A stretch of DNA of 64,000 bases from Candidatus Liberimonas magnetica (GCA_020523885.1 JAJAPY010000016.1:10359-74358); one strand, 5' to 3'. Numbered from the stretch's first letter, positions 3,101 to 60,476 are shown. The notes: generated by a model from the letters alone, not told the origin. Numbers and translations are program-made.

Positions 3101-3190
3101 CTTGATTATGGTGATTAACTACAAGATTACAATGATCAATTATCTTAGAAGTATCACCGTAATCAAAGTTATGAATCTCTGTAATCAGGA
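3101..3190. repeat. Stutter-arm inverted repeat, GATTACA dialect
   Basis: The left arm cttgattatggtgattaactacaagattacaatgatc is mirrored by the right arm atcaccgtaatcaaag...ctctgtaatcagg, in the rnfD/rnfG spacer. Confidence 0.7.
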
Positions 3191-3198
3191 ATTTATAA

Positions 3199-3747
3199 AT
3201 GAAGATATTTAAATCAGGATTGATACTTCTAATACTCTCGGTTGTTTCAGGGGCCAGCTTATCTTTTGTCTACAGGCAGACAGAAGGACTGATCAAAGAT
3301 GCAAAAGCTAAGAAATTATATGATATGGAAAAGGAGCTATTGCCAGATGCCCGGAGTTTTAAAGAAATTGAAGACGGCAGTGTTGTGCTTGGGTTTAATG
3401 CCGAAGGAAGAAAGGCCGGTGTGATAGTTTTGTCAAGTTACAAAGGGTATGGCGGTATGATAGATATCCTGGCAGGGATTGACGAGCAAGACCGGGTCAC
3501 AAAGGTAAAGGTACTCAAACATACTGAAACTCCCGGGCTTGGAAACAGAGTAGAAAGAGACGATTTCCTCAGCCAGTTTACAGGGAAGAACTTGGCTGCA
3601 ATTTTTCTTAAAAAAGATAATCCGAACGGGGAGATAGAAGCCGTGACAGGAGCTACTGTCTCTTCCCGCGCTATAGTAGAAAGCGTTAAAAAAGCACTTG
3701 CTAAATCGTCAAATTATGAAGAAAAGATAGAGGTGAAAGAAGAATGA
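3199..3747 (+). CDS. rnfG: Rnf complex subunit G (FMN-binding)
   Basis: N-terminal TM helix, FMN_bind domain with TGATVSS flavinylation motif, position in the rnf array. Confidence 0.85.
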   Translation: MKIFKSGLILLILSVVSGASLSFVYRQTEGLIKDAKAKKLYDMEKELLPDARSFKEIEDGSVVLGFNAEGRKAGVIVLSSYKGYGGMIDILAGIDEQDRVTKVKVLKHTETPGLGNRVERDDFLSQFTGKNLAAIFLKKDNPNGEIEAVTGATVSSRAIVESVKKALAKSSNYEEKIEVKEE

Positions 3748-4430
3748 AACTCTGGCTTCAAATATTCTTAAACGGCATAACAAAGGAAAACCCTGTACTT
3801 ATAATGATGATCGGGCTTTGCCCTGTACTTGCCTGCTCCTCAACCGCTATAGATGCTCTTGCTATGGGCATAGTTACTACTTTTGTACTTGTTTCATCGA
3901 ACATCCTGGTTTCCGCCCTAAAGAGATGGACGCCTTCTGAGGTCAGGATACCGGCCTTTATAATAATCATTGCGAGTTTTGTGACTATAGCAGACTATCT
4001 TATGCAGGGTTATTTTCCGGACATCAGCAAAAACCTTGGCGTGTTCGTACCTTTGATAGCCGTAAACTGTATAATACTCGGCCGTGCAGAAGTTTTTGCG
4101 TACAAAAATTCCATGTGGCTTTCCTTCTTGGATGGTTTTGGCATGGGCACAGGATTTACTTTAGTGATACTCCTGTTAGGTGTTATACGCGAAGCTCTTG
4201 GAGCAGGCACGGTATTTCAACATAACCTTGGAATAAGCAATCCCGCCACTTTGATGATACTTCCTCCCGGTGCTTTTATAACCATAGGATTTCTGATAAT
4301 TATCTGGAGAGCCATATATAAAAAAGATAAAATTTCCGGTGCTTCCTGTTCTCATTGTAACCTGCTGCAGATATGCCATCCTGTCGAGAGCGGGAAATGT
4401 GAAGTAATAGATGAATTGGATAAAAAATAA
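3744..4430 (+). CDS. rnfE: Rnf complex subunit E, with an unusual Cys-rich C-terminal tail
   Basis: RnfE/NqrD-type polytopic protein. ATGA overlap with rnfG. Tail is SCSHCNLLQICHPVESGKCEV. Confidence 0.9.
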   Translation: MKLWLQIFLNGITKENPVLIMMIGLCPVLACSSTAIDALAMGIVTTFVLVSSNILVSALKRWTPSEVRIPAFIIIIASFVTIADYLMQGYFPDISKNLGVFVPLIAVNCIILGRAEVFAYKNSMWLSFLDGFGMGTGFTLVILLLGVIREALGAGTVFQHNLGISNPATLMILPPGAFITIGFLIIIWRAIYKKDKISGASCSHCNLLQICHPVESGKCEVIDELDKK

Positions 4431-4454
4431 AGCGTTGAGCGTATAGAATCTCCA

Positions 4455-4513
4455 GGTTTAAGGTGTAAGGGTAAGGTTTAAGATTTAAAACTTACCCCTT
4501 ACTCCTTATCCCT
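4455..4513. repeat. Stutter-arm inverted repeat, AAGG/CCTT dialect (single copy)
   Basis: ggtttaaggtgtaagggtaaggtttaag ... cttaccccttactccttatccc in the rnfE/rnfA spacer. Confidence 0.6.
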
Positions 4514-4534
4514 GTTTTTATCATGGAGTTATAA

Positions 4535-5125
4535 ATGCATTTTAGCGAGATGTTTTCGATTTTCTTTGCTGCACTTATAATCAACAATATAATCCTGATG
4601 CGGTTCATGGGGCTTTGCTCTTTTCTAGGGGTTTCGGACAAAATGAAGCCATCGATAGGCATGAGCCTTGCGGTCGCTTTTGTAATGATTATGTCAACTG
4701 CGGTTACTTGGCCTTTATATAATTATATCCTGATCCCGTTCCATCTTGAGTTCCTGCGCACAATTTCTTTTATACTTGTGATAGTCTCTCTCGTCCAGGC
4801 CGTCGAGATTTTTATGAAAAAAAATGCCCCGGTGCTTTACGGGGCCCTGGGCATTTATCTGCCTCTTATAACAGCCAACTGTGCGATACTTGCCGTGACT
4901 TTCCTGAACACAGATCATAACTACGATTTTCTGAGATCTCTCATACATACTCTGGGAGTAGCAGGAGGATATTCGATTGCCATAATCCTTTTGACGGCTA
5001 TACGGCTCAGGCTAAACTTCGCACCGGTCCCCAGATTGATCAGGGGTTATCCGTTGATTTTTTTTACCGCAGCACTTATGTCTCTTGCTTTCATGGGCTT
5101 TACAGGCCTTTTTGGGATACATTAA
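4535..5125 (+). CDS. rnfA: Rnf complex subunit A
   Basis: RnfA/NqrE-type six-helix membrane protein, paralogous to the preceding RnfE; position in the array. Confidence 0.9.
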   Translation: MHFSEMFSIFFAALIINNIILMRFMGLCSFLGVSDKMKPSIGMSLAVAFVMIMSTAVTWPLYNYILIPFHLEFLRTISFILVIVSLVQAVEIFMKKNAPVLYGALGIYLPLITANCAILAVTFLNTDHNYDFLRSLIHTLGVAGGYSIAIILLTAIRLRLNFAPVPRLIRGYPLIFFTAALMSLAFMGFTGLFGIH

Positions 5126-5137
5126 CGACAAAAACTC

Positions 5138-5188
5138 ATTTAATAATGCCTTTAACTTTAATTTTGCATTTTGATATTTTCAATTTGA
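5138..5188. repeat. TGCAAAAT-dialect element, core box plus right arm only
   Basis: tttaataatgcctttaactttaattttgcattttgatattttcaatttga. It matches the core and right arm of the elements at 7613, 9096, 11164 and 25202. Confidence 0.65.
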
Positions 5189-5197
5189 ATTAGAAAT

Positions 5198-6040: not shown

Positions 6041-6061
6041 ATTAAAAAATAATAGTATAAT
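6033..6061 (+). promoter_or_regulatory. Sigma70-type promoter candidate for rpsB-tsf
   Basis: TTGATT (6033-6038), 17 nt, TATAAT (6056-6061). Overlaps the rnfB stop codon. Confidence 0.45.
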
Positions 6062-6175
6062 ATCAAATCCAAAAATACACACACTCCCGGATTTTCTTCA
6101 AAGTCCCCGGTCCTGGACTGGGGTTGAAGGGAAGATGAACGGAGTGGAGGAAAAAACTAAGGAGGGAGTAAAGGT

Positions 6176-7604: not shown

Positions 7605-7612
7605 TAAAAACG

Positions 7613-7711
7613 AAATGAAAAGTGCAAAATGAAAAATGAAAAATAGCATAAAATCTTTTTAATAAAAGCCTTTAACCTTAATTTTTCATTTTAAATTTTG
7701 CATTTTTCATT
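7613..7711. repeat. Stutter-arm inverted repeat, TGCAAAAT dialect (simple form)
   Basis: Left arm aaatgaaaagtgcaaaatgaaaaatgaaaaat. Core tttaataaaagcctttaaccttaatttt. Right arm tcattttaaattttgcatttttcatt. Ends 8 nt before the GGAGG of pyrH. Confidence 0.85.
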
Positions 7712-7729
7712 GATTTCTGGAGGTTTTGC

Positions 7730-8463: not shown

Positions 8464-8525
8464 GGCTCGTCTCTTCCCGCCTGATCGGCGGATAAACTGG
8501 CGAGCCCGCCAGTGAGGCGGGGAGG
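8464..8525 (+). promoter_or_regulatory. GC-rich structured leader upstream of frr
   Basis: Outer pairing GGCTCG/CGAGCC encloses hairpin CCGCC-tgatc-GGCGG. A second hairpin, CCCGCC-agtga-GGCGGG, has a 3' arm that overlaps the GGGAGG SD. Confidence 0.45.
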
Positions 8526-9091: not shown

Positions 9092-9095
9092 CAAA

Positions 9096-9193
9096 AAATG
9101 CAAAATAAAAAGTGCAAAATGAAAAATTAAGGAAAAATCCATTAATAAAAGTTTTAAGATTAATTTTGCATTTTAATATTTGCAATTTGCATT
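9096..9193. repeat. Stutter-arm inverted repeat, TGCAAAAT dialect (simple form)
   Basis: aaatgcaaaataaaaagtgcaaaatgaaaaattaagg ... ttaataaaagttttaagattaattttgcattttaatatttgcaatttgcatt. Abuts the GGAGG of the ferredoxin gene. Confidence 0.85.
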
Positions 9194-9382: not shown

Positions 9383-9407
9383 GTTCTGCTGAAAAAATCA
9401 TCAGACC

Positions 9408-9483
9408 CTGATTACAACGATTACACAGATTAATCATCGATGAAGTTTCTGTGTAATCTGCCTTTACAATCCGTGTAATCATG
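9408..9483. repeat. Stutter-arm inverted repeat, GATTACA dialect
   Basis: The left arm ctgattacaacgattacacagattaatcat is mirrored by the right arm ttctgtgtaatctgcctttacaatccgtgtaatcatg. Confidence 0.75.
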
Positions 9484-9507
9484 ACCGTTGAGGATTTTTC
9501 AACGGTC
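9483..9507 (+). terminator. 9-bp hairpin without a clear U-tract, just upstream of uppS
   Basis: GACCGTTGA-ggatttt-TCAACGGTC. Confidence 0.3.
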
Positions 9508-10241: not shown

Positions 10242-10248
10242 AACAACA

Positions 10249-10325
10249 GTCTTGAGTAATGTGTCTTGAGTCGTGAGAAAGAAATTGTTTTAGGCTCAGG
10301 ACTTAGGACTTAGGACTTAGGACTC
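10249..10325. repeat. Stutter-arm inverted repeat, GTCTTGAG / GGACTTAG dialect
   Basis: Left arm gtcttgagtaatgtgtcttgagtcgtgag. Right arm ctcaggacttaggacttaggacttaggactca. The arms pair only if G:U pairs on the + strand are allowed. Confidence 0.7.
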
Positions 10326-11163: not shown

Positions 11164-11270
11164 AAAATAATGCAAATTGAAAATTGCAAAATGAAAAATT
11201 AAGGAATAAAAACTTATTTAATAAAAGTCGTTAACCTTAATCTTGCATTTTTTATTTTGCAATTTTCATT
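11164..11270. repeat. Stutter-arm inverted repeat, TGCAAAAT dialect (simple form)
   Basis: aaaataatgcaaattgaaaattgcaaaatgaaaaattaagg ... tttaataaaagtcgttaaccttaatcttgcattttttattttgcaattttcatt. Confidence 0.85.
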
Positions 11271-11291
11271 GGTGTTTATTGGAGCAATTTT

Positions 11292-12443
11292 GTGAAAAAA
11301 ATAGTCATTCTCGGCTCGACCGGTTCTATCGGATGCCAGGCAATTAATGTCATAAAACGGCTGAGAGGGGAAATAGAAATAGCCGGCCTTACCACCTATT
11401 CAAATCTGGCCTTGCTGAAAAAACAGATAAGAGTATGCCGTCCTCAGATAGTGTCGGTATGGAAAGAAGAACAGGCTTTGGAATTGAACGAGTGGTGCAA
11501 AAGAAATAAGATCAAGCTTGAAATACTGCATGGCCTTGAAGGGCTTGTAGAAATTGCCGGCTGCGCCGCATCTGACATGGTCCTTTCTGCGGTAGTCGGC
11601 TCGATAGGTCTTAAACCACTTCTTGCGGCTATTAAGAGCAAGAAAAATATAGCTTTGGCAAATAAAGAAGCGCTGGTCATAGCCGGCGATATTATAATGG
11701 CCGAAGCAAAAAAAAATAAAGTTAAGCTGATTCCTGTAGACAGCGAGCATTCGGCGGTATTCCAATGTCTGAAACAAGAGGATGCAAAAACAGTTCATAA
11801 GATCATTTTAACGGCTTCTGGCGGCCCCTTTTACAGGTATAACAGCTCTCATTCAGATATTAAAGTTTCACAAGCCCTGGACCATCCTACATGGAAGATG
11901 GGGCAAAAGATAACGATAGATTCAGCAACTTTGATGAACAAGGGTCTTGAAGCTATTGAAGCTCATCATCTGTTCAATATCGGGTTTGATAAAATAGAAA
12001 TAGTCATTCATCCTCAATCCATAGTCCATTCAATGGTTGAATTTATAGATACTACCGTGTTGGCTCATTTGTCCTATCCTACTATGGAATTGCCTATACA
12101 GTATGCTCTAACATATCCGGAAAGGTGTAAGTTGCCTTTAAGAAGACTTGATTTATCCGTTATTAAAAGATTGGAGTTCGATGCCCCTGATTTTGACAGG
12201 TTCCCGTGTCTGAAACTTGCACTAAATGCAGGAAAGATATCCGGTACAATGCCTGCTGTCATGAATGCGGCGAACGAGAAAGCAGTAAGGTTTTTTTTAG
12301 ATGGAAAAATAAAGTTTACCGATATTGCAAAAATAATAAAAAAAGTCATGTCGCTTCATAAAACTATAGAAAACCCGTCTTTAGATGATATATTTGCAGC
12401 AGATTTATGGGCCAGGGAAGTAACTAGAGCGTTTAGCGGATAG
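11292..12443 (+). CDS. dxr: 1-deoxy-D-xylulose 5-phosphate reductoisomerase
   Basis: ILGSTGSIG NADPH motif, LANKEALV, DSEHSA, HPTWKMG motifs. GTG start. Confidence 0.95.
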   Translation: MKKIVILGSTGSIGCQAINVIKRLRGEIEIAGLTTYSNLALLKKQIRVCRPQIVSVWKEEQALELNEWCKRNKIKLEILHGLEGLVEIAGCAASDMVLSAVVGSIGLKPLLAAIKSKKNIALANKEALVIAGDIIMAEAKKNKVKLIPVDSEHSAVFQCLKQEDAKTVHKIILTASGGPFYRYNSSHSDIKVSQALDHPTWKMGQKITIDSATLMNKGLEAIEAHHLFNIGFDKIEIVIHPQSIVHSMVEFIDTTVLAHLSYPTMELPIQYALTYPERCKLPLRRLDLSVIKRLEFDAPDFDRFPCLKLALNAGKISGTMPAVMNAANEKAVRFFLDGKIKFTDIAKIIKKVMSLHKTIENPSLDDIFAADLWAREVTRAFSG

Positions 12444-12518
12444 CGTAGAGCGGATAGGAAAAACAAAGTCTTTCTGTTTTGTTGTTTACTATACGCTATA
12501 CGCTGAACGCTCTACGCT
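12426..12518. repeat. Stutter-arm inverted repeat, AGCGTAGAGCG dialect
   Basis: Left arm agagcgtttagcggatagcgtagagcggatagg, which overlaps the last dxr codons. Right arm ctatacgctatacgctgaacgctctacgct. Confidence 0.8.
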
Positions 12519-12532
12519 AAAAAGGAGATATA

Positions 12533-13591: not shown

Positions 13592-13600
13592 AGGATAAAT

Positions 13601-13730
13601 ACTAAACTCTAAATCCTAAACAAACTCAAAACTCAATTAACAAAAACTAAAAAATACAACTGGATTTGTTTTGAATTTGAAGCTTTGAGTATTTGAGTTT
13701 ATCTAGAGTTTAGGATTTAGTGTTTAGGGT
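13601..13730. repeat. Stutter-arm inverted repeat, CTAAACTC / GAGTTTAG dialect
   Basis: Left arm actaaactctaaatcctaaacaaactcaaaactcaa. Right arm ttgagtatttgagtttatctagagtttaggatttagtgtttaggg. The same units appear in both arms but in a permuted order. Confidence 0.75.
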
Positions 13731-13751
13731 TTTAAATTCAGAGGTTAAAGT

Positions 13752-14840
13752 ATGTTTAAACGTTGGCAAACAAGGAAAGTTAATATAGGTAAGTTGAGTA
13801 TCGGCGGGGGCTCTCCTGTCCTTGTCCAATCTATGACAAATACCAAGACATCCGACGTCAATTCGACAGTAAGCCAGATAAAAAAACTTGAAGATGCGGG
13901 CTGCGATATTGTAAGGGTATCTGTACCTGACCTGGAGGCCGCACGCAGCATAGAAAAAATAAAGAATAAGATAAAAATACCTCTTGTCTGCGACATCCAT
14001 TTTGACTACAAGCTCGCCATCGAATCGATAAAACGGGGTGCAGATAAGATAAGGATCAACCCGGGCAATATCGGGTCAGTTGATAAAGTTCAGGCAGTGG
14101 TCGAAGCTGCAAAAAAAGCAAGGATACCTATACGCATAGGCGTTAATGCAGGGTCTTTAAAAAAAGCCCAGGGTTTAGACACGTACAAGAAAAGAGCAGA
14201 AGTTCTTGCAGGTTCGGCTCTGGAACACATCAAGTTGCTTGAGAAGTTAAACTTCTATGATACGGTAGTTGCTTTAAAAGCCTCCGATGTCCTGACCACT
14301 ATAGAAGCATACAGAGTCTTTGCATCTAAAAAAAATTATCCTTTGCATATTGGCATTTCGGAATCAGGGAGTGTTTACAGAGGCACCATTAAATCTTCGG
14401 TAGGTTTAGGAGTGCTTCTTTACATGGGACTCGGGGATACTTTAAGGGTTTCTTTGACAGGCAACCCCGTGGATGAGGTCCAGGTGGGCTATCATATCCT
14501 GCAGACTCTCGGTCTCCGTTCTACGGGCATAGATATGGTCTCGTGCCCGACTTGTTCAAGGTGCGAGGTAGATTTGATCAAAATAGTAAACAAAATAGAA
14601 GATGAAATAAAATCCGTAAAAATATCATCCAGGTACAAGAAAAAACCGTTAAAAGTAGCTGTTATGGGGTGTGTAGTCAACGGCCCGGGAGAGGCTAAGG
14701 AATCCGATTTCGGAATAGCCGGAGGGAAAAACTCAGGGTTGTTATTTGTCAAAGGCAAAATTATAAAACGATTGAAACCCAAAGATTGGGTAAAGACCAT
14801 ACTAAAACTGATAAAAGAAAAAAATAAGGGCAAAAGCTAG
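13752..14840 (+). CDS. ispG: 4-hydroxy-3-methylbut-2-enyl diphosphate synthase
   Basis: GGGSPVLVQSMTNT N-terminus, CPTCSRC and GCVVNGPGE cluster motifs. Confidence 0.95.
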   Translation: MFKRWQTRKVNIGKLSIGGGSPVLVQSMTNTKTSDVNSTVSQIKKLEDAGCDIVRVSVPDLEAARSIEKIKNKIKIPLVCDIHFDYKLAIESIKRGADKIRINPGNIGSVDKVQAVVEAAKKARIPIRIGVNAGSLKKAQGLDTYKKRAEVLAGSALEHIKLLEKLNFYDTVVALKASDVLTTIEAYRVFASKKNYPLHIGISESGSVYRGTIKSSVGLGVLLYMGLGDTLRVSLTGNPVDEVQVGYHILQTLGLRSTGIDMVSCPTCSRCEVDLIKIVNKIEDEIKSVKISSRYKKKPLKVAVMGCVVNGPGEAKESDFGIAGGKNSGLLFVKGKIIKRLKPKDWVKTILKLIKEKNKGKS

Positions 14841-14910
14841 GGCCAAAGAGGCAAGGATAAGGAAAACATGATTCCTATTGATCCTTGACCCTGAAGTTTT
14901 GACCCTGATT
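14826..14910. repeat. Imperfect stutter-arm inverted repeat, AAGG/CCTTG dialect
   Basis: aagggcaaaagctagggccaaagaggcaaggataagg ... cctattgatccttgaccctgaagttttgaccctg. The left arm overlaps the ispG stop. Confidence 0.5.
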
Positions 14911-14924: not shown

Positions 14925-15395
14925 ATGTCAAAAGAAATTTATTTAACCAGGGAAGGTTATGCAAAGCTGAATGAAGAGCTTGAAAGGCTCAAAAAAAGAA
15001 AACCTCAAATTTCAAAAGATATAGGGACAGCAAGAGAGATGGGCGATCTAAAAGAAAATGCAGAGTACCATGCGGCTAAAGAGACCCTGGGGCATTTGGT
15101 AAGCAGGATAGCCGAGCTTGAGGACAAGATAGCAAGGTCAAAAATAATTGACGAACAAAATATAGCTAAAGACACGATATATATAGGCGCTACGGTTACT
15201 CTTGAAGATATAGAAGAAAAAGATGAATTTGCTTATACCATCGTTGATATAGAAGAAGCAAACCCAGGCGAGGGTAAAATATCCGTACAGTCGCCTTTGG
15301 CACAGGGCCTGCTCGGGCATAAAGTAGGGGAAACCCTTGAGGTCAATTTGCCAGGCGGCAAATTAAATGTTAAAATACTAAAAATAACAAGATAA
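14925..15395 (+). CDS. greA: Transcription elongation factor GreA
   Basis: Coiled-coil N-terminus with GDLKENAEYHAAKE, C-terminal FKBP-like domain. Confidence 0.95.
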   Translation: MSKEIYLTREGYAKLNEELERLKKRKPQISKDIGTAREMGDLKENAEYHAAKETLGHLVSRIAELEDKIARSKIIDEQNIAKDTIYIGATVTLEDIEEKDEFAYTIVDIEEANPGEGKISVQSPLAQGLLGHKVGETLEVNLPGGKLNVKILKITR

Positions 15396-15404: not shown

Positions 15405-15520
15405 AAATTTCGAATCTCGAATATCGAAATCCGAAAAAAAATCAATATCAAATAGCAAATGAATCAAAATTGTTTTTTATTTAATATTTTTTCGAAATTC
15501 GAAATTGCTTATTCGAGATT
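15405..15520. repeat. Stutter-arm inverted repeat, TTCGAAAT dialect
   Basis: Left arm aaatttcgaatctcgaatatcgaaatccgaaaaaaaa. Right arm ttttttcgaaattcgaaattgcttattcgagatt. Confidence 0.8.
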
Positions 15521-17262: not shown

Positions 17263-17302
17263 TCGTAAATCTTTGTAATCGTAATAAAAAGAGGTGCTGA
17301 TT

Positions 17303-20978: not shown

Positions 20979-21011
20979 AGCAATATTTTCTTGCATAGAA
21001 AACAGGTTAAA

Positions 21012-23195: not shown

Positions 23196-23228
23196 GACAA
23201 CAGACAACAGATTACAGGCAACTAAACT

Positions 23229-24602: not shown

Positions 24603-24631
24603 TTGCAAATATATTTCTAATTTAGTATTAT
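24603..24631 (+). promoter_or_regulatory. Sigma70-type promoter candidate for rimP-nusA-infB
   Basis: TTGCAA (24603-24608), 17 nt, TATTAT (24626-24631). Confidence 0.45.
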
Positions 24632-24739
24632 AAACAAAAGAGTGGCATGTACGTTAAGCCGCTCTTTAGTTTTTCTGGCCCAGTTGGCCAGATAAAGATA
24701 AGATTAGACAGATTAAAACGGAATAAAACGGCTGGATCT

Positions 24740-25201
24740 ATGAGCACGATAGAAGAGCTTGAAAAAGTTATTGCACCAGTACTTGAGACAGATAAATTTG
24801 AGCTTGTCGATATTAATTACGGAAAAGAAGGCGGCAAGAAGGTGTTGCGTGTTTTCATCGATAAAGAAGGCGGCGTAAAACTGGCAGATTGCGAGGCCGT
24901 GAGCCTCAAGATAGAAGAAGCGGTTGAAACTTCAGAGCTTATACCTGATGATTATGTAATAGAAGTGTCTTCGCCCGGGCTTGACAGGATAATAAAGAAA
25001 GAGAAAGACTTTATAAAGTTTACGGGGCAGGATGTGAAAATATCGGTTTTTGCACCGATTGACGGGCAGCGGAATTTTACAGGCAAACTGCTCTGGGCAG
25101 GCGAAGGAAAAGTCAAGATAGCCGATATATCCGGTAAGACGCTTGAGATAGAGATAGAAAAGATTGCAAGAGCCAGGTTGAACCCTGAGATAAGAATATA
25201 A
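24740..25201 (+). CDS. rimP: Ribosome maturation factor RimP
   Basis: MSTIEELEKVIAPVLE..., EVSSPGLDR motif, position before nusA. ATG 24740 preferred over the track start at 24647. Confidence 0.85.
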   Translation: MSTIEELEKVIAPVLETDKFELVDINYGKEGGKKVLRVFIDKEGGVKLADCEAVSLKIEEAVETSELIPDDYVIEVSSPGLDRIIKKEKDFIKFTGQDVKISVFAPIDGQRNFTGKLLWAGEGKVKIADISGKTLEIEIEKIARARLNPEIRI

Positions 25202-25303
25202 TGAAAAAATTAAAATGAAAAATGCAAAATTAAGGAAAGAACCAATATAATAAAAGTCTTTTAACCTTAATTTTTCAATTTGATATTTGCATTTTGCATT
25301 TGA
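25202..25303. repeat. Stutter-arm inverted repeat, TGCAAAAT dialect (simple form)
   Basis: tgaaaaaattaaaatgaaaaatgcaaaattaagg ... ataataaaagtcttttaaccttaatttttcaatttgatatttgcattttgcatttga. The track's nusA start at 25294 falls inside the right arm. Confidence 0.85.
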
Positions 25304-28890: not shown

Positions 28891-28927
28891 ATTGCAAATT
28901 GCAAAATGAAAATTGCAAAATGAAGAT
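28891..28927. repeat. TGCAAAAT-dialect left arm only
   Basis: attgcaaattgcaaaatgaaaattgcaaaatgaagat. I saw no matching right arm before rbfA. Confidence 0.6.
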
Positions 28928-28971
28928 TATATACAGCAAACCAACAAAAAAACTAATTACAGTAGGGATAT

Positions 28972-29343: not shown

Positions 29344-29406
29344 TTATGATGATTAAAAAATAGATTACATAGATTATGGTTCTACAGTATTATCTGTATA
29401 ATCAAG
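29341..29406. repeat. Stutter-arm inverted repeat, GATTACA dialect
   Basis: tgattatgatgattaaaaaatagattacatagattatgg ... ctacagtattatctgtataatcaag. Confidence 0.6.
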
Positions 29407-29431
29407 TCCCTAAATAGACTGAAAAAAGAAA

Positions 29432-30403: not shown

Positions 30404-31134
30404 CGTTCAACCTGGCAGAATCAGGCCTGCTGGTCATTAATAAACCGTCAGGCATAACATCCTATGGTGTTGTACGGAAGGTCAAGCACCTGTTGCAAAT
30501 TGACAAAGTCGGACATTGCGGAACGCTGGACCCTATGGCAGAAGGGGTCCTTTTAGTGCTGTTCGGTTCCTCAACGAAAATGCAGAGCGTGTTGATGGGC
30601 CAGAGGAAAGTTTACAGGACTGTTTTGTCCCTGGGTGTAAGAACTGACACCGGCGATATAACAGGAAAGATAATAGAAAAAAAAGAAACCAGGGATATCC
30701 AAAAGGAAGATCTTTTAAATGCGCTAAAAAAGTTTAGCGGGGAGATAAGACAGCTTACTCCGCATTTTTCCGCTGTAAAGGTGAACGGGAAAAAAATGTA
30801 CGAGCTTGCCCGCGAAGGGATAACGGTGGAAAGGCCGCCAAGGATAGTAAATATACATGAAATAGAGCTTCGCGGCTTTAATAGAGATGAGGTCAGTTTA
30901 AGGGTGGAGTGCTCAAGCGGGACATATATCAGGACTTTATGCGAAGATATAGGCGAAGAGCTGGGAATGCCAGCGACCATGAAATATTTGTGCAGGGAAA
31001 AGATAGGAAATTACGATATAAGCGCAGCAATAGCATTAAGTGAAATGGATAAATTAGGCAGGGACGGTTTGCTAGATAGAAAAATAAATTTAAGTTCAGA
31101 AATTCAAAATGCAAATTGCAAAATGCAAAATTAA
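30400..31134 (+). CDS. truB: tRNA pseudouridine(55) synthase
   Basis: GLLVINKPSGITS, HCGTLDPMAEGVL catalytic motif. ATGA overlap with nrnA. The last 11 codons read into the TGCAAAAT element. Confidence 0.9.
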   Translation: MTFNLAESGLLVINKPSGITSYGVVRKVKHLLQIDKVGHCGTLDPMAEGVLLVLFGSSTKMQSVLMGQRKVYRTVLSLGVRTDTGDITGKIIEKKETRDIQKEDLLNALKKFSGEIRQLTPHFSAVKVNGKKMYELAREGITVERPPRIVNIHEIELRGFNRDEVSLRVECSSGTYIRTLCEDIGEELGMPATMKYLCREKIGNYDISAAIALSEMDKLGRDGLLDRKINLSSEIQNANCKMQN

Positions 31135-31220
31135 TGTGTCGCCTTTGGCGACTTATTTAAATTATCCCGCCAAGGCGGGATTCCGCAATTTTGCACTTTG
31201 CAATTTTCATTTTGCAATTA
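31101..31220. repeat. TGCAAAAT-dialect element, complex form with two internal GC hairpins
   Basis: Left arm aattcaaaatgcaaattgcaaaatgcaaaatt. Hairpins GTCGCC-ttt-GGCGAC (31138-31152) and ATCCCGCC-aa-GGCGGGAT (31164-31181). Right arm caattttgcactttgcaattttcattttgcaatt. Confidence 0.85.
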
Positions 31221-34465: not shown

Positions 34466-34469
34466 TAAA

Positions 34470-34507
34470 TGATTACACAGATTAGTAAATGCGATTACAT
34501 AGATTAA
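34470..34507. repeat. GATTACA-dialect left arm
   Basis: tgattacacagattagtaaatgcgattacatagattaa. A weak partner, aaatctgtgaat, lies at about 34548-34560. Confidence 0.55.
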
Positions 34508-34595
34508 AATCATATACAAGTAATAAAATCCGGATAAGCTTTTTAAGAAATCTGTGAATTCAAAGTTAGCGAAGCTAGCTTTAAAAGGAGTTATA

Positions 34596-36665: not shown

Positions 36666-36820
36666 AAAAATCTCGAATATCGAATTTCGAAATCCGAAAA
36701 AATATTCAAGAAACAAATACGGCAAAAAAGCGCATAGAAATCCTTGATTATTTGATTATTAGATATTTGAAATTGCAGTTTTTTTCGGAATTCGTGCTTC
36801 GGATTTCGAATTTGATATTG
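36666..36820. repeat. Stutter-arm inverted repeat, TTCGAAAT dialect
   Basis: Left arm aaaaaatctcgaatatcgaatttcgaaatccgaaaaaa. Right arm tttttttcggaattcgtgcttcggatttcgaatttgatattg. Confidence 0.8.
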
Positions 36821-37309: not shown

Positions 37310-37328
37310 ATCCCGGCAGGGATAAAAG

Positions 37329-37430
37329 AATTGCAAATTGCAAATCGAGAAATTGCAAATTTAAAATTGTAGGTTTTGAAATACAGTTGTTAAATTTGCA
37401 TTTTGCAATTTGCAATTTTCAATTTGCAAT
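37329..37430. repeat. Stutter-arm inverted repeat, TGCAAAAT/ATTGCAA dialect
   Basis: Left arm aattgcaaattgcaaatcgagaaattgcaaatttaaaattg. Right arm taaatttgcattttgcaatttgcaattttcaatttgcaat. Preceded by the hairpin ATCCC-ggca-GGGAT at 37310-37323. The right arm abuts the ftsK ATG. Confidence 0.8.
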
Positions 37431-42777: not shown

Positions 42778-42848
42778 AATTTAGCAGGCTCCTGATTACG
42801 GTGATTGATTTTTTAGATGTAATAAGGAAATGGTATAGAGTTAAATAA

Positions 42849-44710: not shown

Positions 44711-44835
44711 ATAATTGCAAATTGCAAAATTAAAAATGTAAAATTAAGGTGTCCCGCTGTGCGGGGATGTATTTAAATTAATCCCGCCTTGGCGGGATAC
44801 ATTAATTTTTCATTTTGCAATTTTCAATTTGCAAT
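44711..44835. repeat. TGCAAAAT-dialect element, complex form with two internal GC hairpins
   Basis: Left arm ataattgcaaattgcaaaattaaaaatgtaaaattaagg. Hairpins CCCGC-tgt-GCGGG (about 44752-44767) and ATCCCGCC-tt-GGCGGGAT (44781-44798). Right arm attaatttttcattttgcaattttcaatttgcaat. Confidence 0.85.
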
Positions 44836-46505: not shown

Positions 46506-49463
46506 ATGACTATAATTAAAAAAATAATATTCATAGGTATTATTTTACGTACGATATCTGCCAGCTCTGTTTTCGGCCAGGATGTCATTACTACTTTTGC
46601 CGGAACCGGAACTTACGGTTATTCAGGCGACGGAGGGTTGGCCGCTTCAGCCAGGCTATATAATCCTAAAGGAGTAGCGGTTGATAATAATTCGGGAGTT
46701 GTTTATATCTGTGATAGTAATAATCATCGAATACGGAAAGTAAACGCTTCGGGAATAATATCAACTTTTGCCGGAACGGGAACAGCCGGTTTTTCAGGAG
46801 ACGGCAGCCTTGCAACTTCAGCTGAACTTGATACACCTTATGGAGTAGCGGTTGACACTTCAGGGAATGTCTATATCTCTGACCAGGGTAACAACCGGAT
46901 ACGGAAAGTAAACACTTCAAGCACAATAGCAACTTTTGCCGGAGGCGGGACCGGTGGTTTAGGCGACGGCGGCCCTGCAACCTCCGCCCAACTTAATAGT
47001 CCTTACGGAGTAGCGGTTGATTCTTCAGGGAATGTCTATATCTCTGACCAGGGTAACAACCGGATACGGAAAGTAAACACTTCAGGCACAATAGCAACTT
47101 TTGCCGGAGGCGGGACCGGCGGTTTAGGCGACGGCGGCCCTGCAGTCTTAGCTCAACTTAATAACCCTTATGGAGTAACGGTTGACACTCAAGGGAGTGT
47201 CTATATCTCTGATTATACTAATAATTTAATCAGGAAAGTAAACGCTTCAGGCACAATAGCAACTTTTGCCGGAGGCGGGGTCGGCGGTTTAGGCGACGGC
47301 GGCCCTGCAACTTCAGCCCGGCTCACAAATCCCAGTGGTATAGCGGTTGATGATTTAGGGAATGTTTATATTTCTTCCTTTATTGATTTTCGAATACGGA
47401 AAGTGGACACTTCAGGAATAATATCAACTTTTGCGGGGACTGGAATTGCAGGTGATTCAGGCGACGGAGGGAAAGCTACGTTAGCTCAGATAAGTAATTC
47501 TTACGGAGTAGCTGTCGATACTTCAGGGCATGTTTATATCTCTGACTATAACAGTCATCGAATAAGGAAAGTTATTTTGGGGCGCGGGGCTATTGCAGGG
47601 CAGGTATTAGATTCTTATGGAAAAACAGCGGTTTCGGGAGTGCTCATAGAAATATTGCAGTCGGGTGTGCTTAAATCAAGTACGACAAGCGATACGTTCG
47701 GAAATTATGCAGTCAAAGTTGATACCGGGGTTTATAATGTGCGGGCTTCTTTGACAGGCTACCAACCTCAGACTAAAAACGGGTATAATGTAAAAACTAG
47801 TTCGACTGTAACGGTAAATTTTTCCCTTGCACGGATCATCGGCGTTATTTCCGGAAAAGTAACAAAATCGGACGGAACAACGGCGGTTTCAGGAGCGCTC
47901 GTAGAAGCAATGCAATCCGGAGTAACAAAAGCAAGCATTAATACGAATACAAGCGGCAATTACTCAATGAAAATAACTCCGGGGACGTATGATGTAAGAG
48001 TGTCTTCTACAGGTTATGAGCCCCAGCTTAAAACAGGTTATACCGTAGCCGATGGTTCAACTGCCACAGTAAATTTTTCTCTTCTGCAGATCCCAGGTGT
48101 TATTTCAGGCAAAGTGACAAAATCAGACGGAACAACACCTGTCCCAGGAGCCCTTATAGAAATATTACAGTCCGGCGCAGTTAAAGCAAGCGCAACAAGC
48201 GATATAAGCGGCAATTATTCTATAACAACAGATGTGGGAACCTATAATGTAAAGGCATCTAAAACAGGATACCTGTCCCAGACAAAAACCGGGTATGACG
48301 TGACAACCGGTTCGACAAAAACCGTTGATTTTTTGCTTGTCGAGCTTTCTGCAGCTAAAACAGGCGTCATTTCAGGTAAAGTTACACGGTCAAATGGCAC
48401 AACTCCTGTCTCCGGAGCGATGGTAGAAGCGTTAATTTCAGGAATAACAAAAGCAAATGCAACAACAGATGCAAGCGGCAATTATTCTATAAGAGCAGGG
48501 ACGGGGACATATAATGTAAAGGCATCTAAAGCAGGGTACATGTCACAGACAAAAACCGGATACTATGTGGCAGACGGTTCGACAAAAACCGTTAATTTTT
48601 CGCTTGTCGAGCTTGCGGCAGCCAAAACCGGGGTTATTTCAGGGAACGTGACACGGTCGGACGGCATAACACCTGCTTCCGGAGCGGTAGTAGAAGCATT
48701 AATTTCCGGAATAACAAAAGCAAATGTAACAACAGATCTGTACGGCAATTATTCTATAACAGTAGGGACGGGGGCCTATGACGTAAAGGCATCTAAAGGC
48801 GGGTACCTGTCTCAAACAAAAACAGGGTATGACGTGACAACAGGATCGACAAAAACCGTTAATTTTTCGCTTGTAGAGCTTTCAGGGGGCAGCTATGGCG
48901 AAATTGCCGGAAGAGTGACAAAATCCGACGGAGTGACACCTGTTTTTGGTGCGGTAATTGAGGTATTTGAGGCAGGCGTGGAAAGATCAAATGCGATGAC
49001 CGATATAGACGGTTATTATTACCTGGCGGTATCGACAGGGATTTATGATATAAAAGCTTCTATTACAGGATTTCAATCTCAGACAAAAACCTTTTATGCG
49101 CTGGACAGCGCGTCGTTAGTTACTGTAGATTTTTCTTTAGTTGAGGAAATACAGGAAAAACAGGAGATACCTCACGACGACAAAGTGATCGCTCTCGGAG
49201 ATAACTTGTTTAATCCGAGGGCGGGCGGGACATGCAAGGTATGGTTTAACCTTTCACAACCGGGCGATGTAACGATAAAAGTGTATGATTTTATGGGCTC
49301 TCAGGTAAGAACCGGCCTGGACAATGCAAACCATGCTTCGGGGATATCCCAGTGGAACTGGGACGGTAAAGATAATGACGGGAAAATCGTCCCGCCCGGC
49401 ATCTATATTCTGTATTTTAAATACCCGGGTGGAATTATAAAAAGAAAAATAGGCGTAAAATGA
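46506..49463 (+). CDS. Secreted protein: six NHL repeats, six CarboxypepD_reg-like domains, FlgD-Ig-like C-terminal domain (paralog of 21012-23195)
   Basis: Signal peptide, six ...VYIS.. NHL blades, six GVISGKVT.SDGTT.VSGA.VE... domains. The tail WNWDGKDNDGKIVPPGIYILYFKYPGG is nearly the same as the paralog's. Confidence 0.85.
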   Translation: MTIIKKIIFIGIILRTISASSVFGQDVITTFAGTGTYGYSGDGGLAASARLYNPKGVAVDNNSGVVYICDSNNHRIRKVNASGIISTFAGTGTAGFSGDGSLATSAELDTPYGVAVDTSGNVYISDQGNNRIRKVNTSSTIATFAGGGTGGLGDGGPATSAQLNSPYGVAVDSSGNVYISDQGNNRIRKVNTSGTIATFAGGGTGGLGDGGPAVLAQLNNPYGVTVDTQGSVYISDYTNNLIRKVNASGTIATFAGGGVGGLGDGGPATSARLTNPSGIAVDDLGNVYISSFIDFRIRKVDTSGIISTFAGTGIAGDSGDGGKATLAQISNSYGVAVDTSGHVYISDYNSHRIRKVILGRGAIAGQVLDSYGKTAVSGVLIEILQSGVLKSSTTSDTFGNYAVKVDTGVYNVRASLTGYQPQTKNGYNVKTSSTVTVNFSLARIIGVISGKVTKSDGTTAVSGALVEAMQSGVTKASINTNTSGNYSMKITPGTYDVRVSSTGYEPQLKTGYTVADGSTATVNFSLLQIPGVISGKVTKSDGTTPVPGALIEILQSGAVKASATSDISGNYSITTDVGTYNVKASKTGYLSQTKTGYDVTTGSTKTVDFLLVELSAAKTGVISGKVTRSNGTTPVSGAMVEALISGITKANATTDASGNYSIRAGTGTYNVKASKAGYMSQTKTGYYVADGSTKTVNFSLVELAAAKTGVISGNVTRSDGITPASGAVVEALISGITKANVTTDLYGNYSITVGTGAYDVKASKGGYLSQTKTGYDVTTGSTKTVNFSLVELSGGSYGEIAGRVTKSDGVTPVFGAVIEVFEAGVERSNAMTDIDGYYYLAVSTGIYDIKASITGFQSQTKTFYALDSASLVTVDFSLVEEIQEKQEIPHDDKVIALGDNLFNPRAGGTCKVWFNLSQPGDVTIKVYDFMGSQVRTGLDNANHASGISQWNWDGKDNDGKIVPPGIYILYFKYPGGIIKRKIGVK
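46836..47165 (+). repeat. Intragenic tandem repeat, 2 x 165 bp (one NHL blade each)
   Basis: The copies start at 46836 and 47001. By eye I count about a dozen mismatches, including one run of 62 identical nt. A third, more diverged copy follows. Confidence 0.85.
48336..48869 (+). repeat. Intragenic tandem repeat, 2 x 267 bp (one CarboxypepD_reg-like domain each)
   Basis: Units begin with cttgtcgagctt at 48336 and 48603; the next unit starts at 48870. The encoded units, LVEL(S/A)AAKTGVISG..., are highly similar. Confidence 0.8.
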
Positions 49464-49519
49464 GACAACACAACAAGACACAAGACACAAGACTATACTA
49501 TATTGCTTAGGAATTATGG

Positions 49520-50880: not shown

Positions 50881-50991
50881 GTCATTCCTGCCCCCGATTT
50901 AGGGCATTCGAGGGTAAACTCCAGCAGGAATCCAGAGAAGTTGTTTGTCGTCGATATTCCTGGATTCCCGCTAAAGGCATGCAGGAATGAC
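50881..50991. repeat. Nested inverted repeat with GTCATT...AATGAC termini (REP/MITE-like)
   Basis: Outer pair GTCATTCCTGC / GCAGGAATGAC. Inner pair GCAGGAATCCAG / CCTGGATTCCCGC. Confidence 0.75.
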
Positions 50992-51033
50992 AAAATATGT
51001 TGGAGAGTAGTGAAAATATAATAAAATAAAATG

Positions 51034-55180: not shown

Positions 55181-55209
55181 TTGAAATATGATTGAAAATT
55201 GAGTATAAT
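55181..55209 (+). promoter_or_regulatory. Sigma70-type promoter candidate for the MoxR operon
   Basis: TTGAAA (55181-55186), 17 nt, TATAAT (55204-55209). Confidence 0.5.
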
Positions 55210-55244
55210 TTATAAAGTTTCATTATTCTGAACGGAGGCGTAAC

Positions 55245-56249: not shown

Positions 56250-56267
56250 ACTAAGCGGAACTAAAGT

Positions 56268-56387
56268 AAATTCAAAATGAAAAATGAAAAATGCAAAATT
56301 AATGTGTCCGCTATGGCGGACGTATTAAAATTATTCGCAAAAGGCGAATACCTCAATTTTGCATTTTGCATTTTGCAATTTGCATTT
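56268..56387. repeat. TGCAAAAT-dialect element, complex form with two internal GC hairpins
   Basis: Left arm aaattcaaaatgaaaaatgaaaaatgcaaaattaatg. Hairpins GTCCGC-tatg-GCGGAC (56306-56321) and ATTCGC-aaaag-GCGAAT (56333-56349). Right arm caattttgcattttgcattttgcaatttgcattt. Confidence 0.85.
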
Positions 56388-56416
56388 AAGTCAGCTGCAA
56401 TAGGCGGTCTGACTTT

Positions 56417-57292: not shown

Positions 57293-57296
57293 AAAA

Positions 57297-57390
57297 CATA
57301 GCGTAGAGCGTATAGCGGATAGCGTAGAGAAAAGCTAAAACATGAACAGACTTTGACGTTCCTATACGCTCTACGCTATCCGCTATCCGC
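57297..57390. repeat. Stutter-arm inverted repeat, AGCGTAGAGCG dialect
   Basis: Left arm catagcgtagagcgtatagcggatagcgtagag. Right arm cctatacgctctacgctatccgctatccgc. Same dialect as 12426-12518. Confidence 0.85.
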
Positions 57391-57404
57391 TTTCAGTTAA
57401 ATAT

Positions 57405-59405: not shown

Positions 59406-59482
59406 AGGGGAAATCATAGATGTCCCAATTTGGTGTCATACCCGCGAACAGACTGTGTCGCAATCGGTAAAAATGAAGGTTT

Positions 59483-59560
59483 TGTCATTGCGAGGCGTCT
59501 TTTGCCGAAGCAATCCATATTTTAACGACGAGATTGCTTCGCCTTCGGCTCGCAATGACA
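59483..59560. repeat. Nested inverted repeat with TGTCATTGC...GCAATGACA termini (REP/MITE-like)
   Basis: Outer pair TGTCATTGCGAG / CTCGCAATGACA. Inner pair GCCGAAGCAATC / GATTGCTTCGCC. Followed by the hairpin CCTCTCC-tgcc-GGAGAGG. Confidence 0.8.
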
Positions 59561-59609
59561 TTCTGGCACCTCCTCTCCTGCCGGAGAGGTTTCACAGGAG
59601 AAGAATACT

Positions 59610-60341
59610 ATGATGATTTTGAGGATACTTCTTGTTATAATCTTTTCAATAAATCTTTGTTTTTCCCAGGAAGGGAATTATTTTAAGTTCGTACAGCTGA
59701 AATATGACGGCAAATGTGACCCTTACCCGGAGGCCTGGCAGGATATACTGGAGTTTATTACCACTACTACTACAATAAAACCGCTCAAGGAAAGGAAACT
59801 GGTCACTTTAGATGACGAAGAACTGTTCTCATACCCGTATTTGTTCATCCTGGGCACAGAAAGCTTCCCGGGTTTAAGCGATAAAGACTGTGCTGTGATT
59901 AGGAGGTACCTCTCTAACGGCGGGATGATATTTGCCGAGGATTCTTCCGGGATAAAAGGCAGTGCTTTTGATTCTTCCTTCAGGAAAGAAATAGCCAAGG
60001 CCTTTCCTGAAAGCAAGCTTAAAAAACTGCCCTTTGACCACCCGCTTTACAGGGCTTATTATCTGTTAAGAAAGGTGGGAGGGAGGCGTTTGACAAATAA
60101 TTATATGGAAGGAATAGATATTTCAGGAAGGACTGCGCTCATCTATTCGCAGAATGACCTTATCGGTGCCTGGGCAAAAGACCGTCTGGGGAATTACTTG
60201 TGGCACTGCCTGCCCGGGGAAGAGACCCAGAGGTTTGAAGCGCAGAAACTGACCTTGAACCTGATAATGTATTTTGTCACAGGCACCTATAAAAGCGATG
60301 CTGTGCATAAACCGTACATACAGGAAAAGCTGGGAAGATAA
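59610..60341 (+). CDS. DUF4159 domain protein
   Basis: FKFVQLKYDGKCDPYPEAWQDIL...FSYPYLFILGTESF...IRRYLSNGGMIFAED matches the DUF4159 pattern and its usual Bat/MoxR context. Confidence 0.7.
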   Translation: MMILRILLVIIFSINLCFSQEGNYFKFVQLKYDGKCDPYPEAWQDILEFITTTTTIKPLKERKLVTLDDEELFSYPYLFILGTESFPGLSDKDCAVIRRYLSNGGMIFAEDSSGIKGSAFDSSFRKEIAKAFPESKLKKLPFDHPLYRAYYLLRKVGGRRLTNNYMEGIDISGRTALIYSQNDLIGAWAKDRLGNYLWHCLPGEETQRFEAQKLTLNLIMYFVTGTYKSDAVHKPYIQEKLGR

Positions 60342-60347
60342 TAATAT

Positions 60348-60476
60348 GGCAATTTCGAAATCCGAAGCACTAATTTCGAAAAAAATCGCAAACTTAAAAA
60401 AGCAAAATATTTTTTCTTTTTGCCTATTGGTCATTGATTATTTTTTCGAGATTCGAAATTGGTTATTCGAGATTGG
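60348..60476. repeat. Stutter-arm inverted repeat, TTCGAAAT dialect
   Basis: Left arm ggcaatttcgaaatccgaagcactaatttcgaaaaaaatcg. Right arm ttattttttcgagattcgaaattggttattcgagattgg. Confidence 0.8.

Follow-up and report, generated by a model that had tools for sequence, protein, structure and literature searches.

Short tandemly repeated repetitive sequences (STRRs), the heptamer arrays of cyanobacteria, have been known for 35 years and serve in strain fingerprinting, without an accepted origin or function; they were the subject of a 1990 paper, and they occur also in helix P12 of the RNase P RNA. The intervening sequences (IVSs) of 23S rRNA likewise have no accepted origin or function, and nor does the S23p protein family, which takes its name from its location in the loop of such an IVS. 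Here we describe a window of 64,000 nucleotides, the whole stretch of DNA that was analysed, from Candidatus Liberimonas magnetica (GCA_020523885.1 JAJAPY010000016.1:10359-74358), a metagenome-assembled genome of the Elusimicrobia whose nearest relatives are Endomicrobiales; the host is described as a free-living, Endomicrobiales-related member of the Elusimicrobiota. In this window about 27 spacers between genes hold inverted pairs, and in a few cases single arms, of tandem short units, mostly of 7 nt, here called stutter-arm elements, whose units fall into several unrelated sequence dialects. By analogy with the systems above, we consider it probable that they are hairpins of the STRR class resembling IVSs devoid of an open reading frame (ORF), which would be co-transcribed with their operons, probably cut by RNase III, and mostly neutral or selfish.

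In many bacteria, heptameric simple sequence repeats are found between genes more often than expected (Rehm et al. 2015, PMC4692102); the same paper cites three tandem heptanucleotides from Calothrix PCC 7601 and describes 70-75 convergent inverted GGGAATC array pairs per Xanthomonas genome, capable of forming stem-loops or cruciforms. TAACTGA heptamer arrays lie just 5' of start codons in Beggiatoaceae, cyanobacteria and Bacteroidetes and are missing from close relatives, the suggested binders being S1, Csp or CsrA, with one CspB protein bound per heptamer (MacGregor 2015, PMC4679880). The paired arrangement is found in the first 50 kb of the Nostoc punctiforme plasmid pNPUN01, where eight of nine period-7 arrays form four complementary pairs, in several dialects and between co-directional genes (CAGGAGT/CTGACTC, GAGTAAT/ATTACTC, AGAAGGC/GCCTCCT). 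The window elements belong to this STRR, or heptameric intergenic repeat, class: they consist of tandem units of about 7 nt, are intergenic, use several units within one genome and form paired hairpins as in pNPUN01. STRRs in the strict sense are tied to heterocystous cyanobacterial hosts, whereas the present host is an Elusimicrobia genome. The first-pass annotation had regarded the multi-dialect design as unrecognised, which no longer stands given the match to the published class (PMC4692102, PMC4679880) and to pNPUN01; as to whether the family had been described before, it is present in the literature and has no Rfam match (no match at gathering thresholds in the whole window, and none on elements at E<=1 within 3-16 kb).

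Compared in detail, the elements share with the STRRs of Calothrix, Nostoc and Anabaena the tandem 7-nt units, the several unrelated units per genome, the intergenic location and the fast turnover between relatives; they differ in their Elusimicrobiota host and very high density in core operons, and classical accounts of STRRs stress tandem arrays over paired hairpins. The Xanthomonas GGGAATC repeats agree in their intergenic heptamer excess and convergent array pairs, their length varying between species with the single or paired type kept (PMC4692102), but represent one G-rich dialect studied as a G-quadruplex former, in contrast to the many AT-rich dialects without G-quadruplex potential found here. 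The TAACTGA arrays are similar in that nearly all lie between genes, point the same way as the gene downstream and stop a few nt short of its start codon, and they are present even in ribosomal-protein operons (PMC4679880); they comprise essentially one unit in direct repeats only (with a single inverted case) and lie upstream of start codons, whereas the window hairpins span from stop codon to Shine-Dalgarno sequence (SD).

The census rests on several lines of evidence. Tandem Repeats Finder (TRF) reports 43 short-period arrays in the 64 kb, 29 of them with period 7, and nine reverse-complement pairs; a background survey of 165 unrelated loci (2.2 Mb) yielded 358 short-period arrays and 15 reverse-complement pairs, with 6 and 9 as the commonest periods. 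Non-coding DNA makes up 8.5% of the window and houses 32/43 of all short-period arrays (binomial p 1e-25) and 26/29 of those with period 7, confirming that the elements are not equally frequent in genes. Two of the three period-7 arrays in called coding sequence are really element arms: the array at 31100-31131 makes the 3' end of truB, whose last 11 codons are AAATGCA units (31100-31134), and that at 37393-37430 lies in a mis-called, over-extended ftsK start, the TTG of the longest ORF (37387) sitting within the right arm; the true start is probably the ATG at 37429. The 20 two-armed elements fold with a mean z of -4.9 against dinucleotide shuffles (13 below -3), compared to -0.16 for 43 coding control windows, none of which falls below -3 (Mann-Whitney p 2e-10), in line with the earlier expectation that the arms fold better than shuffled sequence. 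Stems comprise 25-54 aligned positions in most two-armed elements and 10-12 in the two weakest, and z reaches -8.6; seven elements, among them all three copies of the TTCGAAAT dialect, fold weakly (z -1.6 to -2.9). Chance or low complexity is rejected on the shuffle and coding controls and the 2.2 Mb survey, and CRISPR on the lack of regularly spaced direct repeats and unique spacers.

Inspection of every spacer shows a recurring layout in which a left tandem arm sits at the stop codon, followed by an AT-rich centre and a reverse-complement right arm that ends ahead of the SD. Across 33 elements from three genomes, base pairing begins a median of 4 nt beyond the stop codon and ceases a median of 14 nt short of the following start codon, a gap just wide enough for an SD. 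At least nine unit types are present in the window, and no motif common to all dialects was seen among them. The elements total about 2.3 kb, or about 43% of the window's non-coding DNA, at a density of 27 in 64 kb within core housekeeping operons, occupying almost every gene junction of the rnf, rpsB-frr-dxr-proS and nusA-infB-pnp clusters. The first-pass annotation thus located the described arrays correctly at all 25 coordinates listed (25/25), and its account of a stop-to-SD architecture in several unrelated unit sequences, taking up a large share of the non-coding DNA, is borne out; its unit length of 5-9 nt needs correction, as the unit is overwhelmingly 7 nt, with a period of 9-11 in the GATTACA dialect only. 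Two one-arm arrays (23196-23222 and 49473-49493) are added to its listing, and seven elements are half or one-armed (5138, 17263, 23196, 28891, 34466, 42790, the last being weak, and 49473). The elements are as follows, with strand in brackets, z denoting the fold score and L numbers denoting other sequences compared with the window:

3086..3180 (+), GATTACA-dialect hairpin in the rnfD/rnfG spacer; 38 aligned positions (32 Watson-Crick), z -6.5; motif matches
4453..4514 (+), AGGTGTA / CTTACCC heptamer hairpin, rnfE/rnfA; TRF period 7 at 4454-4482 and 4491-4513; z -5.5
5138..5191 (+), half element of the TGCAAAAT family (common centre and right arm only), rnfA/rnfB; family alignment, no significant fold
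7614..7711 (+), TGCAAAAT-family hairpin, tsf/pyrH; period-7 arrays 7613-7644 and 7681-7711; z -8.6; common centre
9095..9188 (+), TGCAAAAT-family hairpin, frr/ferredoxin; arrays and family alignment; z -3.1
9405..9495 (+), GATTACA-dialect hairpin (period 9), ferredoxin/uppS, then a separate GC hairpin; near-identical unit in L168, exact 14-mer in L147/L150
10248..10324 (+), GTCTTGA / TTAGGAC heptamer hairpin, uppS/cdsA; TRF 10290-10324 x5.1; z -7.7; mispairs 5 G·U, 0 A·C
11166..11280 (+), TGCAAAAT-family hairpin, cdsA/dxr; family alignment; z -5.4; a Logan contig breaks within the left arm
12429..12520 (+), AGCGTAG/AGCGGAT versus CTATACG hairpin, dxr/rseP, with the dxr stop codon in the left arm; TRF 12434-12457 and 12489-12519; z -6.7
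13596..13732 (+), AAACTCT / TAGGGTT heptamer hairpin, rseP/ispG; TRF; z -6.0
14827..14906 (+), GGCAAGG / CTTGACCC hairpin, ispG/greA; alignment with the orthologous L165 spacer; z -2.4
15405..15504 (+), TTCGAAAT-dialect hairpin, greA/proS; TRF and dialect alignment; weak fold, z -1.6
17263..17290 (+), GATTACA-dialect right arm only, after proS; spacer reading and motif matches
23196..23222 (+), GACAACA one-arm heptamer array; TRF and paralog comparison
25200..25301 (+), TGCAAAAT-family hairpin, rimP/nusA; family alignment; z -2.0
28891..28928 (+), ATTGCAA one-arm array, infB/rbfA; TRF
29344..29431 (+), weak GATTACA-dialect element, rbfA/nrnA; arm alignment and motif matches; z -1.9
31100..31219 (+), TGCAAAAT-family hairpin with two GC mini-hairpins in the centre, its left arm encoding the truB C-terminus; z -7.5
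34466..34520 (+), GATTACA-dialect left arm only, rpsO/pnp; TRF and motif matches
36669..36819 (+), TTCGAAAT-dialect hairpin, pnp/biotin-carrier gene; TRF and dialect alignment; z -2.7
37327..37427 (+), AATTGCA / AATTTGC hairpin ahead of ftsK; fold z -5.2 and translation
42790..42828 (+), short, weak GATTACA-like hairpin; arm alignment, 10 aligned positions
44713..44835 (+), TGCAAAAT-family hairpin with two GC mini-hairpins in the centre; z -7.2
49473..49493 (+), ACAAGAC one-arm array, paralogous to the 23196 array; TRF and paralog comparison
56267..56388 (+), TGCAAAAT-family hairpin with two GC mini-hairpins in the centre, moxR/DUF58; z -5.7
57298..57393 (+), AGCGTAG / CTATACG hairpin, DUF58/batA; TRF and dialect alignment; z -6.3
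60350..60475 (+), TTCGAAAT-dialect hairpin, DUF4159/GATase-like gene; TRF and dialect alignment; z -2.9

The dialects behave as families. Five copies of the TGCAAAAT dialect have a homologous centre (ATTTAATAAAAG-C-TTTAACCTTAA), three others carry two GC-rich mini-hairpins there instead, and all 8/8 orientable centres lie in one orientation. The TTCGAAAT copies have the left arm and inner sequence in common, with units in permuted order, and the two AGCGTAG copies have arms in common and different centres. A short-read contig from another run (Logan) is identical to the window, and both of its ends fall inside repeat arms, as is expected because the arms are multi-copy repeats. Together, the common centres and arms and the contig ends within arms imply that the dialects are dispersed families and not independent local inventions. 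Arrays can also be re-homogenised in place to a new unit: between paralogous gene pairs whose flanks are 86% identical, the array has been rebuilt from GACAACA to ACAAGAC. These two arrays each follow a gene for a paralogous NHL/beta-propeller surface protein (20991-23195 and 46506-49463, with internal tandem repeats of 165-168 nt and 267 nt) and then a further paralogous gene. No strain-level variation was seen between window and Logan contig, and slippage was not directly observed.

Dispersed hairpin families would also be expected of REP/REPIN- or MITE-like sequences (a MITE being a miniature transposable element with inverted repeats) mobilised in trans by a Y1 transposase, i.e. a REP-associated tyrosine transposase (RAYT) or an IS200-IS605-type enzyme, acting on hairpins in single-stranded DNA. 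In agreement with this, the eight orientable copies are co-oriented on the leading strand, Y1_Tnp genes adjoin the same operon in the relatives L164 and L165, and REP-like GC mini-hairpins are nested in three elements. We nevertheless regard this origin as very unlikely. On either side of the L165 Y1_Tnp there is another palindrome, the GC-rich CCGCCCAGCTTGCTGGGCGG, and not stutter arms, L164 has a Y1_Tnp yet almost no elements, and the window has no RAYT, on which grounds a REP/RAYT identity is rejected; the family alignments show no GTAG/CGTC head, defined termini or target duplication, and tandem-unit arms of variable number and order are unlike the products of a site-specific Y1 enzyme. 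Conserved MITE-type termini or flanks beyond the arms were likewise not seen in these alignments. REP/BIME-RAYT, ERIC and Correia MITEs resemble the window elements in being small palindromic repeats between genes; they are transcribed along with their operons, fold into hairpins in the RNA and can influence mRNA decay, and Correia elements are RNase III substrates. Unlike the window elements, each is a family of one sequence whose ends are defined and whose transposase is known or suspected; the window elements have tandem 7-nt arms in many dialects, and no GTAG/CGTC head, terminal inverted repeat with target-site duplication or transposase association was found for them. The earlier separation of the elements from REP/BIME, ERIC and BOX/RUP is supported, and they are probably not classical MITEs either.

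Relatives were found through metagenome and exact-protein look-ups, the best match in the genome collection having 54% Dxr identity. They compare with the window as follows:

L162, GreA 85%, GC 38%: no elements, ispG-greA spacer 2 nt
L164, GreA 72%, GC 39%: one small element
L165, GreA 68%, GC 50%: packed with elements at the same operon junctions as the window
L166, GreA 65%, GC 58%: almost no elements
L167, GreA 63%, GC 60%: no elements
L168, GreA 62%, GC 48%: packed with elements at the same operon junctions as the window
L083, IspG 64%, GC 42%: an element in the ispG-greA spacer

The spacers of the best relative, L162, are too diverged to align with those of the window. L083 is likewise rich in elements at these junctions. 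In the element-rich genomes adjacent spacers often use one dialect, and the units mostly differ from those of the window, comprising CCAGTTAA, ATATCGT, CTACAT and CAAGGGG in L165 and AAATGGCT, CAATTAG, TGTAATG and TAGTTCG in L168. Not all dialects are private to the window genome: GATTACACAGATTA, with 10 matches (<=2 mismatches) in the window versus 0.36 expected, is present in L168 and, as an exact match, in a 60%-GC organism, and the ispG-greA element aligns with that of the orthologous L165 spacer in the same dialect. Stutter-arm pairs with other units were found in Omnitrophota, Verrucomicrobia, Patescibacteria and a 63%-GC contig (TTGGTCA/TGACCAA). One further hairpin, with CACGAAT units and a GC-rich structured centre, lies between proS and a DUF4416 gene of a 39%-GC organism (L183 640-900). 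The patchy distribution argues against conserved site-specific regulators and favours a genome-level propensity or a proliferating element.

Such patchiness bears directly on the alternative that the elements are selected intercistronic RNAs which set relative mRNA stability or processing between the cistrons of long housekeeping operons, as RNase III sites or as barriers to 3' exonucleases in the manner of REP or ERIC sequences, tandem-unit arms being a fast evolutionary route to long stems. The exact placement from stop codon to SD, with the SD left free, the strong folds, and the presence of elements of differing sequence at tsf/pyrH, frr/fdx, uppS/cdsA, ispG/greA, greA/proS and rimP/nusA in three genomes (62-68% GreA identity) all speak in its favour, as does the element at 10248, whose mispairs are all of the G·U type and which folds on the sense strand only. 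However, when left and right arms are aligned with a scoring that treats G:T and A:C mispairs alike, 34 G·U-type stand against 33 A·C-type mispairs in the window and 11 against 10 in L165, and with the exception of the 10248 element the fold z-scores are alike on both strands; there is therefore no sign of selection maintaining a sense-strand RNA stem, and arm complementarity looks as if it came about in the DNA, unless it is too young for this to be judged. On these counts selected RNA structure was dropped as the lead explanation. It is further weakened by the closest relatives, where the same junctions are spacers of 2-59 nt without an element, by the several half or one-armed elements, and by loop sequences common within a family, which point to dispersal and not to local selection. 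Taken together, selection for an RNA function strikes us as unlikely.

The fixed 7-nt period over unrelated sequences could instead reflect tandem sites for a protein (cold-shock, S1 or CsrA-like) that binds single-stranded nucleic acids and covers about 7 nt per monomer, with the complementary arm as a competitor masking the sites. The binders suggested for TAACTGA, including CspB with its one protein per heptamer (PMC4679880), are compatible with this, and GGA/AGG occurs in several units (TTAGGAC, AAGGTGT, CAAGGAT). Yet there is no cross-dialect motif, and sequences as different as TGCAAAA, AGCGTAG, TCGAAAT and GATTACA cannot all be read by a single protein; the period of the GATTACA dialect is longer, the window holds no candidate gene, and both the inverted pairing and the ORFs enclosed by such arms elsewhere (see below) are left unexplained, making this explanation improbable. 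Even less credible are intrinsic terminators or attenuators between genes. Their position downstream of the stop codon and the T-rich right arms of TGCAAAAT-family hairpins would fit, but none of the plus-strand terminator-like sites in 3-18 kb (5 found versus 14 expected) coincides with an element, the stems are AT-rich, long and imperfect, and elements are found in operons that are essential (rpsB-tsf-pyrH-frr, nusA-infB) and in which termination would do damage.

The link to IVSs comes from the relatives. In L165, the greA-proS element contains between its arms a 117-aa ORF of the 23S_rRNA_IVP/bAvd family (PF05635; L165 10541-10894), and a 'four helix bundle protein' with 41% identity to it (E 5e-31) is encoded between one pair of arrays on pNPUN01. 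Among S23p homologues in the DNA retrieved for comparison, 4/4 independent ones are bracketed by inverted short-unit arrays, and in a taxonomically spread sample of plasmid homologues significant inverted arms (z 4.5-21.6) were detected in 9/12, namely in Calothrix, Trichormus, Geminocystis, Anabaena, Picosynechococcus, Stanieria, Azospirillum, Riemerella and Leptolyngbya. The remaining three (Pseudanabaena, PCC 7120 and Gemmatirosa) have adjoining heptamer arrays in direct orientation or on one side only; on Pseudanabaena galeata pPg_01 (L171 280-400, 760-865), the S23p-type gene at cas6/cas4 has direct arrays of CTAAAAG x14 upstream and CCAAAAG x10 downstream. Overall, S23p lies between inverted short-unit arms in 13/16 cases, across Elusimicrobiota, Patescibacteria-like contigs, cyanobacteria, Riemerella and Azospirillum. 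As a control, the S23p gene ranks 1/41 among Nostoc genes for enclosing inverted repeats, and 0/53 window genes are enclosed. The family is large (>7,500 matches at E<=1e-15 to S23p/'four helix bundle protein' in one search), and we found no paper linking S23p with heptamer arrays.

The S23p ORFs (L165 10541-10894, L170 1617-1982, L171-L182, L183 and L193) are usually sense-oriented between co-directional genes of unrelated operons, including cas6/cas4 (in two cyanobacteria), cas10/cmr3, DUF4416/ndk and a histidine kinase/response regulator pair. Protein similarity follows arm dialect in three clusters, each drawn from different host contexts: N. punctiforme, T. variabilis and Picosynechococcus with CAGGAGT-type arms, PCC 7120 and Stanieria with CAGAGGG-type arms, and L165, P0170 and P0124 with CAAGGGG-type arms. 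Moreover, in both L165 and Nostoc the hairpin that carries the ORF and the 'empty' one next to it are of one dialect. From the match between subfamily and dialect and the empty neighbours of the same dialect we conclude that ORF and arms act as one cassette placed in different contexts, an arrangement reminiscent of RAYT genes flanked by their own REP. The ispG-greA element of the window is in a dialect that is also found as arms around S23p-type ORFs.

These observations resemble the 23S IVSs of Leptospira and Coxiella, which have terminal inverted repeats, a stem of about 28 bp and a loop able to hold an S23p ORF, are inserted in sense in a transcribed region and are sporadically distributed in phylogeny; in Coxiella, a 28-bp stem from terminal inverted repeats encloses S23p and RNase III cuts mid-stem (PMC4990558). 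Most two-armed window elements similarly have a stem of at least 20 bp around a loop. The differences are that IVSs reside in 23S rRNA helices 25 and 45, whereas the window elements lie between protein genes and without an S23p ORF, and that RNase III excision has been demonstrated for IVSs, its window counterpart resting on analogy.

These comparisons indicate that the window elements arise and diversify at the DNA level, with unit number and order changing, that copies spread to other stop-codon-proximal spacers, and that they persist only between a stop codon and the next SD, the one site at which a repeat out of triplet phase does no harm. We further propose that, given their position within operons, the elements are co-transcribed and their arms pair into imperfect stems of 25-50 bp, which RNase III probably cleaves as it does 23S rRNA IVSs, segmenting the polycistronic mRNAs. 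The window copies would thus correspond to ORF-less, 'empty' versions of IVS-like S23p cassettes, most of them neutral or selfish passengers and not conserved regulators.

Several points weigh against this account of empty IVS-like hairpins. No S23p gene, reverse transcriptase or transposase is present among the 53 window genes, which leads us to reject a cis-encoded mobilising enzyme and means that the link from the window to ORF-carrying cassettes depends on the relatives and on one common dialect. Identical S23p ORFs recur across 10-20 metagenomes in one context with identical arrays (two of the cassettes are identical across 10 samples each), i.e. no recent transposition or slippage was seen among them. 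The equal numbers of G·U and A·C mispairs speak against selection on a sense-RNA stem, so that any RNA role of the elements may be incidental, and RNase III cleavage is probable by analogy only. As all genes lie on one strand, which is also the leading strand, co-orientation with transcription is inseparable from co-orientation with replication. The TGCAAAAT-family centre bears a weak, AT-rich likeness to the 3' end of the L165 ORF that is significant for one copy, making its descent from the end of an S23p ORF suggestive only. Finally, the 7-nt unit length is left unaccounted for.

A broader and more tentative proposal, which we consider doubtful on balance, is that stutter-arm hairpins, cyanobacterial STRRs and 23S IVSs are one hitherto unrecognised class of mobile cassette, consisting of an S23p (Avd-like) gene bracketed by inverted arrays, with S23p as a dialect-specific factor, and of abundant ORF-less derivatives alongside. 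S23p would recognise its own heptamer array and promote the copying or maintenance of that array, and many S23p paralogs would give rise to many dialects. Since Avd is the reverse transcriptase cofactor of diversity-generating retroelements, a reverse transcriptase that copies a short template repeatedly may possibly be involved.

The window as a whole has a GC content of 40-44% and all of its genes on the plus strand, which by cumulative GC skew is the leading strand as well. Its GreA shows 100% identity to a protein of an NCBI 'Elusimicrobia bacterium' MAG. Its housekeeping clusters are rnfCDGEAB, rpsB-tsf-pyrH-frr-ferredoxin-uppS-cdsA-dxr-rseP-ispG-greA-proS and rimP-nusA-infB-rbfA-nrnA-truB-ribF-EF-G-rpsO-pnp, followed by ftsK-lolA-rodZ-miaB and a moxR/batA cluster; no rRNA is present in the window. 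Other structures were noted alongside the stutter-arm elements. A conserved leader precedes rpsB (window 6060-6175, ACACACTC...GGAGTGGAGG; L164 1917-2104, L165 1046-1315, L167 1592-1922, L168 1180-1515), stutter elements being absent there in all relatives; it gives a sub-threshold match to the Rfam t44 (S2 leader) model (6060-6156, E 0.08) and is probably the Elusimicrobiota version of the S2 autoregulatory leader. Upstream of rimP-nusA-infB, a hairpin AGAGTGGC(N4-8)GCCACTCT followed by a T-run is conserved in relatives (window 24630-24660; L162 5629-5734, L166 10964-11226, L167 16257-16489, L168 15264-15534), extends in the window into the called rimP start codon and looks like an attenuator. 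Distinct long GC-rich palindromes (GTCATTGCGAGG...CCTCGCAATGAC, GTCATTCCTGC...GCAGGAATGAC) occupy promoter-type spacers without stutter elements (window 50885-51010, 59490-59570 and 62690-62735; L165 1100-1150). REP-like GC mini-hairpins of the TCCCGCC-N4-GGCGGGA type lie nested in three TGCAAAAT-element loops and also occur on their own (window 31140-31195, 44760-44800, 56300-56350, 8480-8525 and 37312-37326; L165 229-601 and 1046-1100), and the palindrome around the L165 Y1 transposase points to a REP/RAYT system distinct from the elements. Inside the greA 3' end, a match to Rfam RAGATH-32 below the threshold (15309-15387; 29.8 bits versus a gathering threshold of 41.8, E 0.0015) is probably due to chance.

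In conclusion, what is new here is the phylum, Elusimicrobiota, and the extreme density of the elements, the design itself being already known; the range of heptameric repeats is thereby widened to a phylum without earlier description of them. In practical terms, the repeats break up short-read assemblies and cause start and stop codons to be mis-called, as for the ftsK start and the truB C-terminus. If the link between S23p and the arms holds, it would assign a function to S23p, offer an origin for IVSs and supply STRRs with a candidate factor acting in trans.

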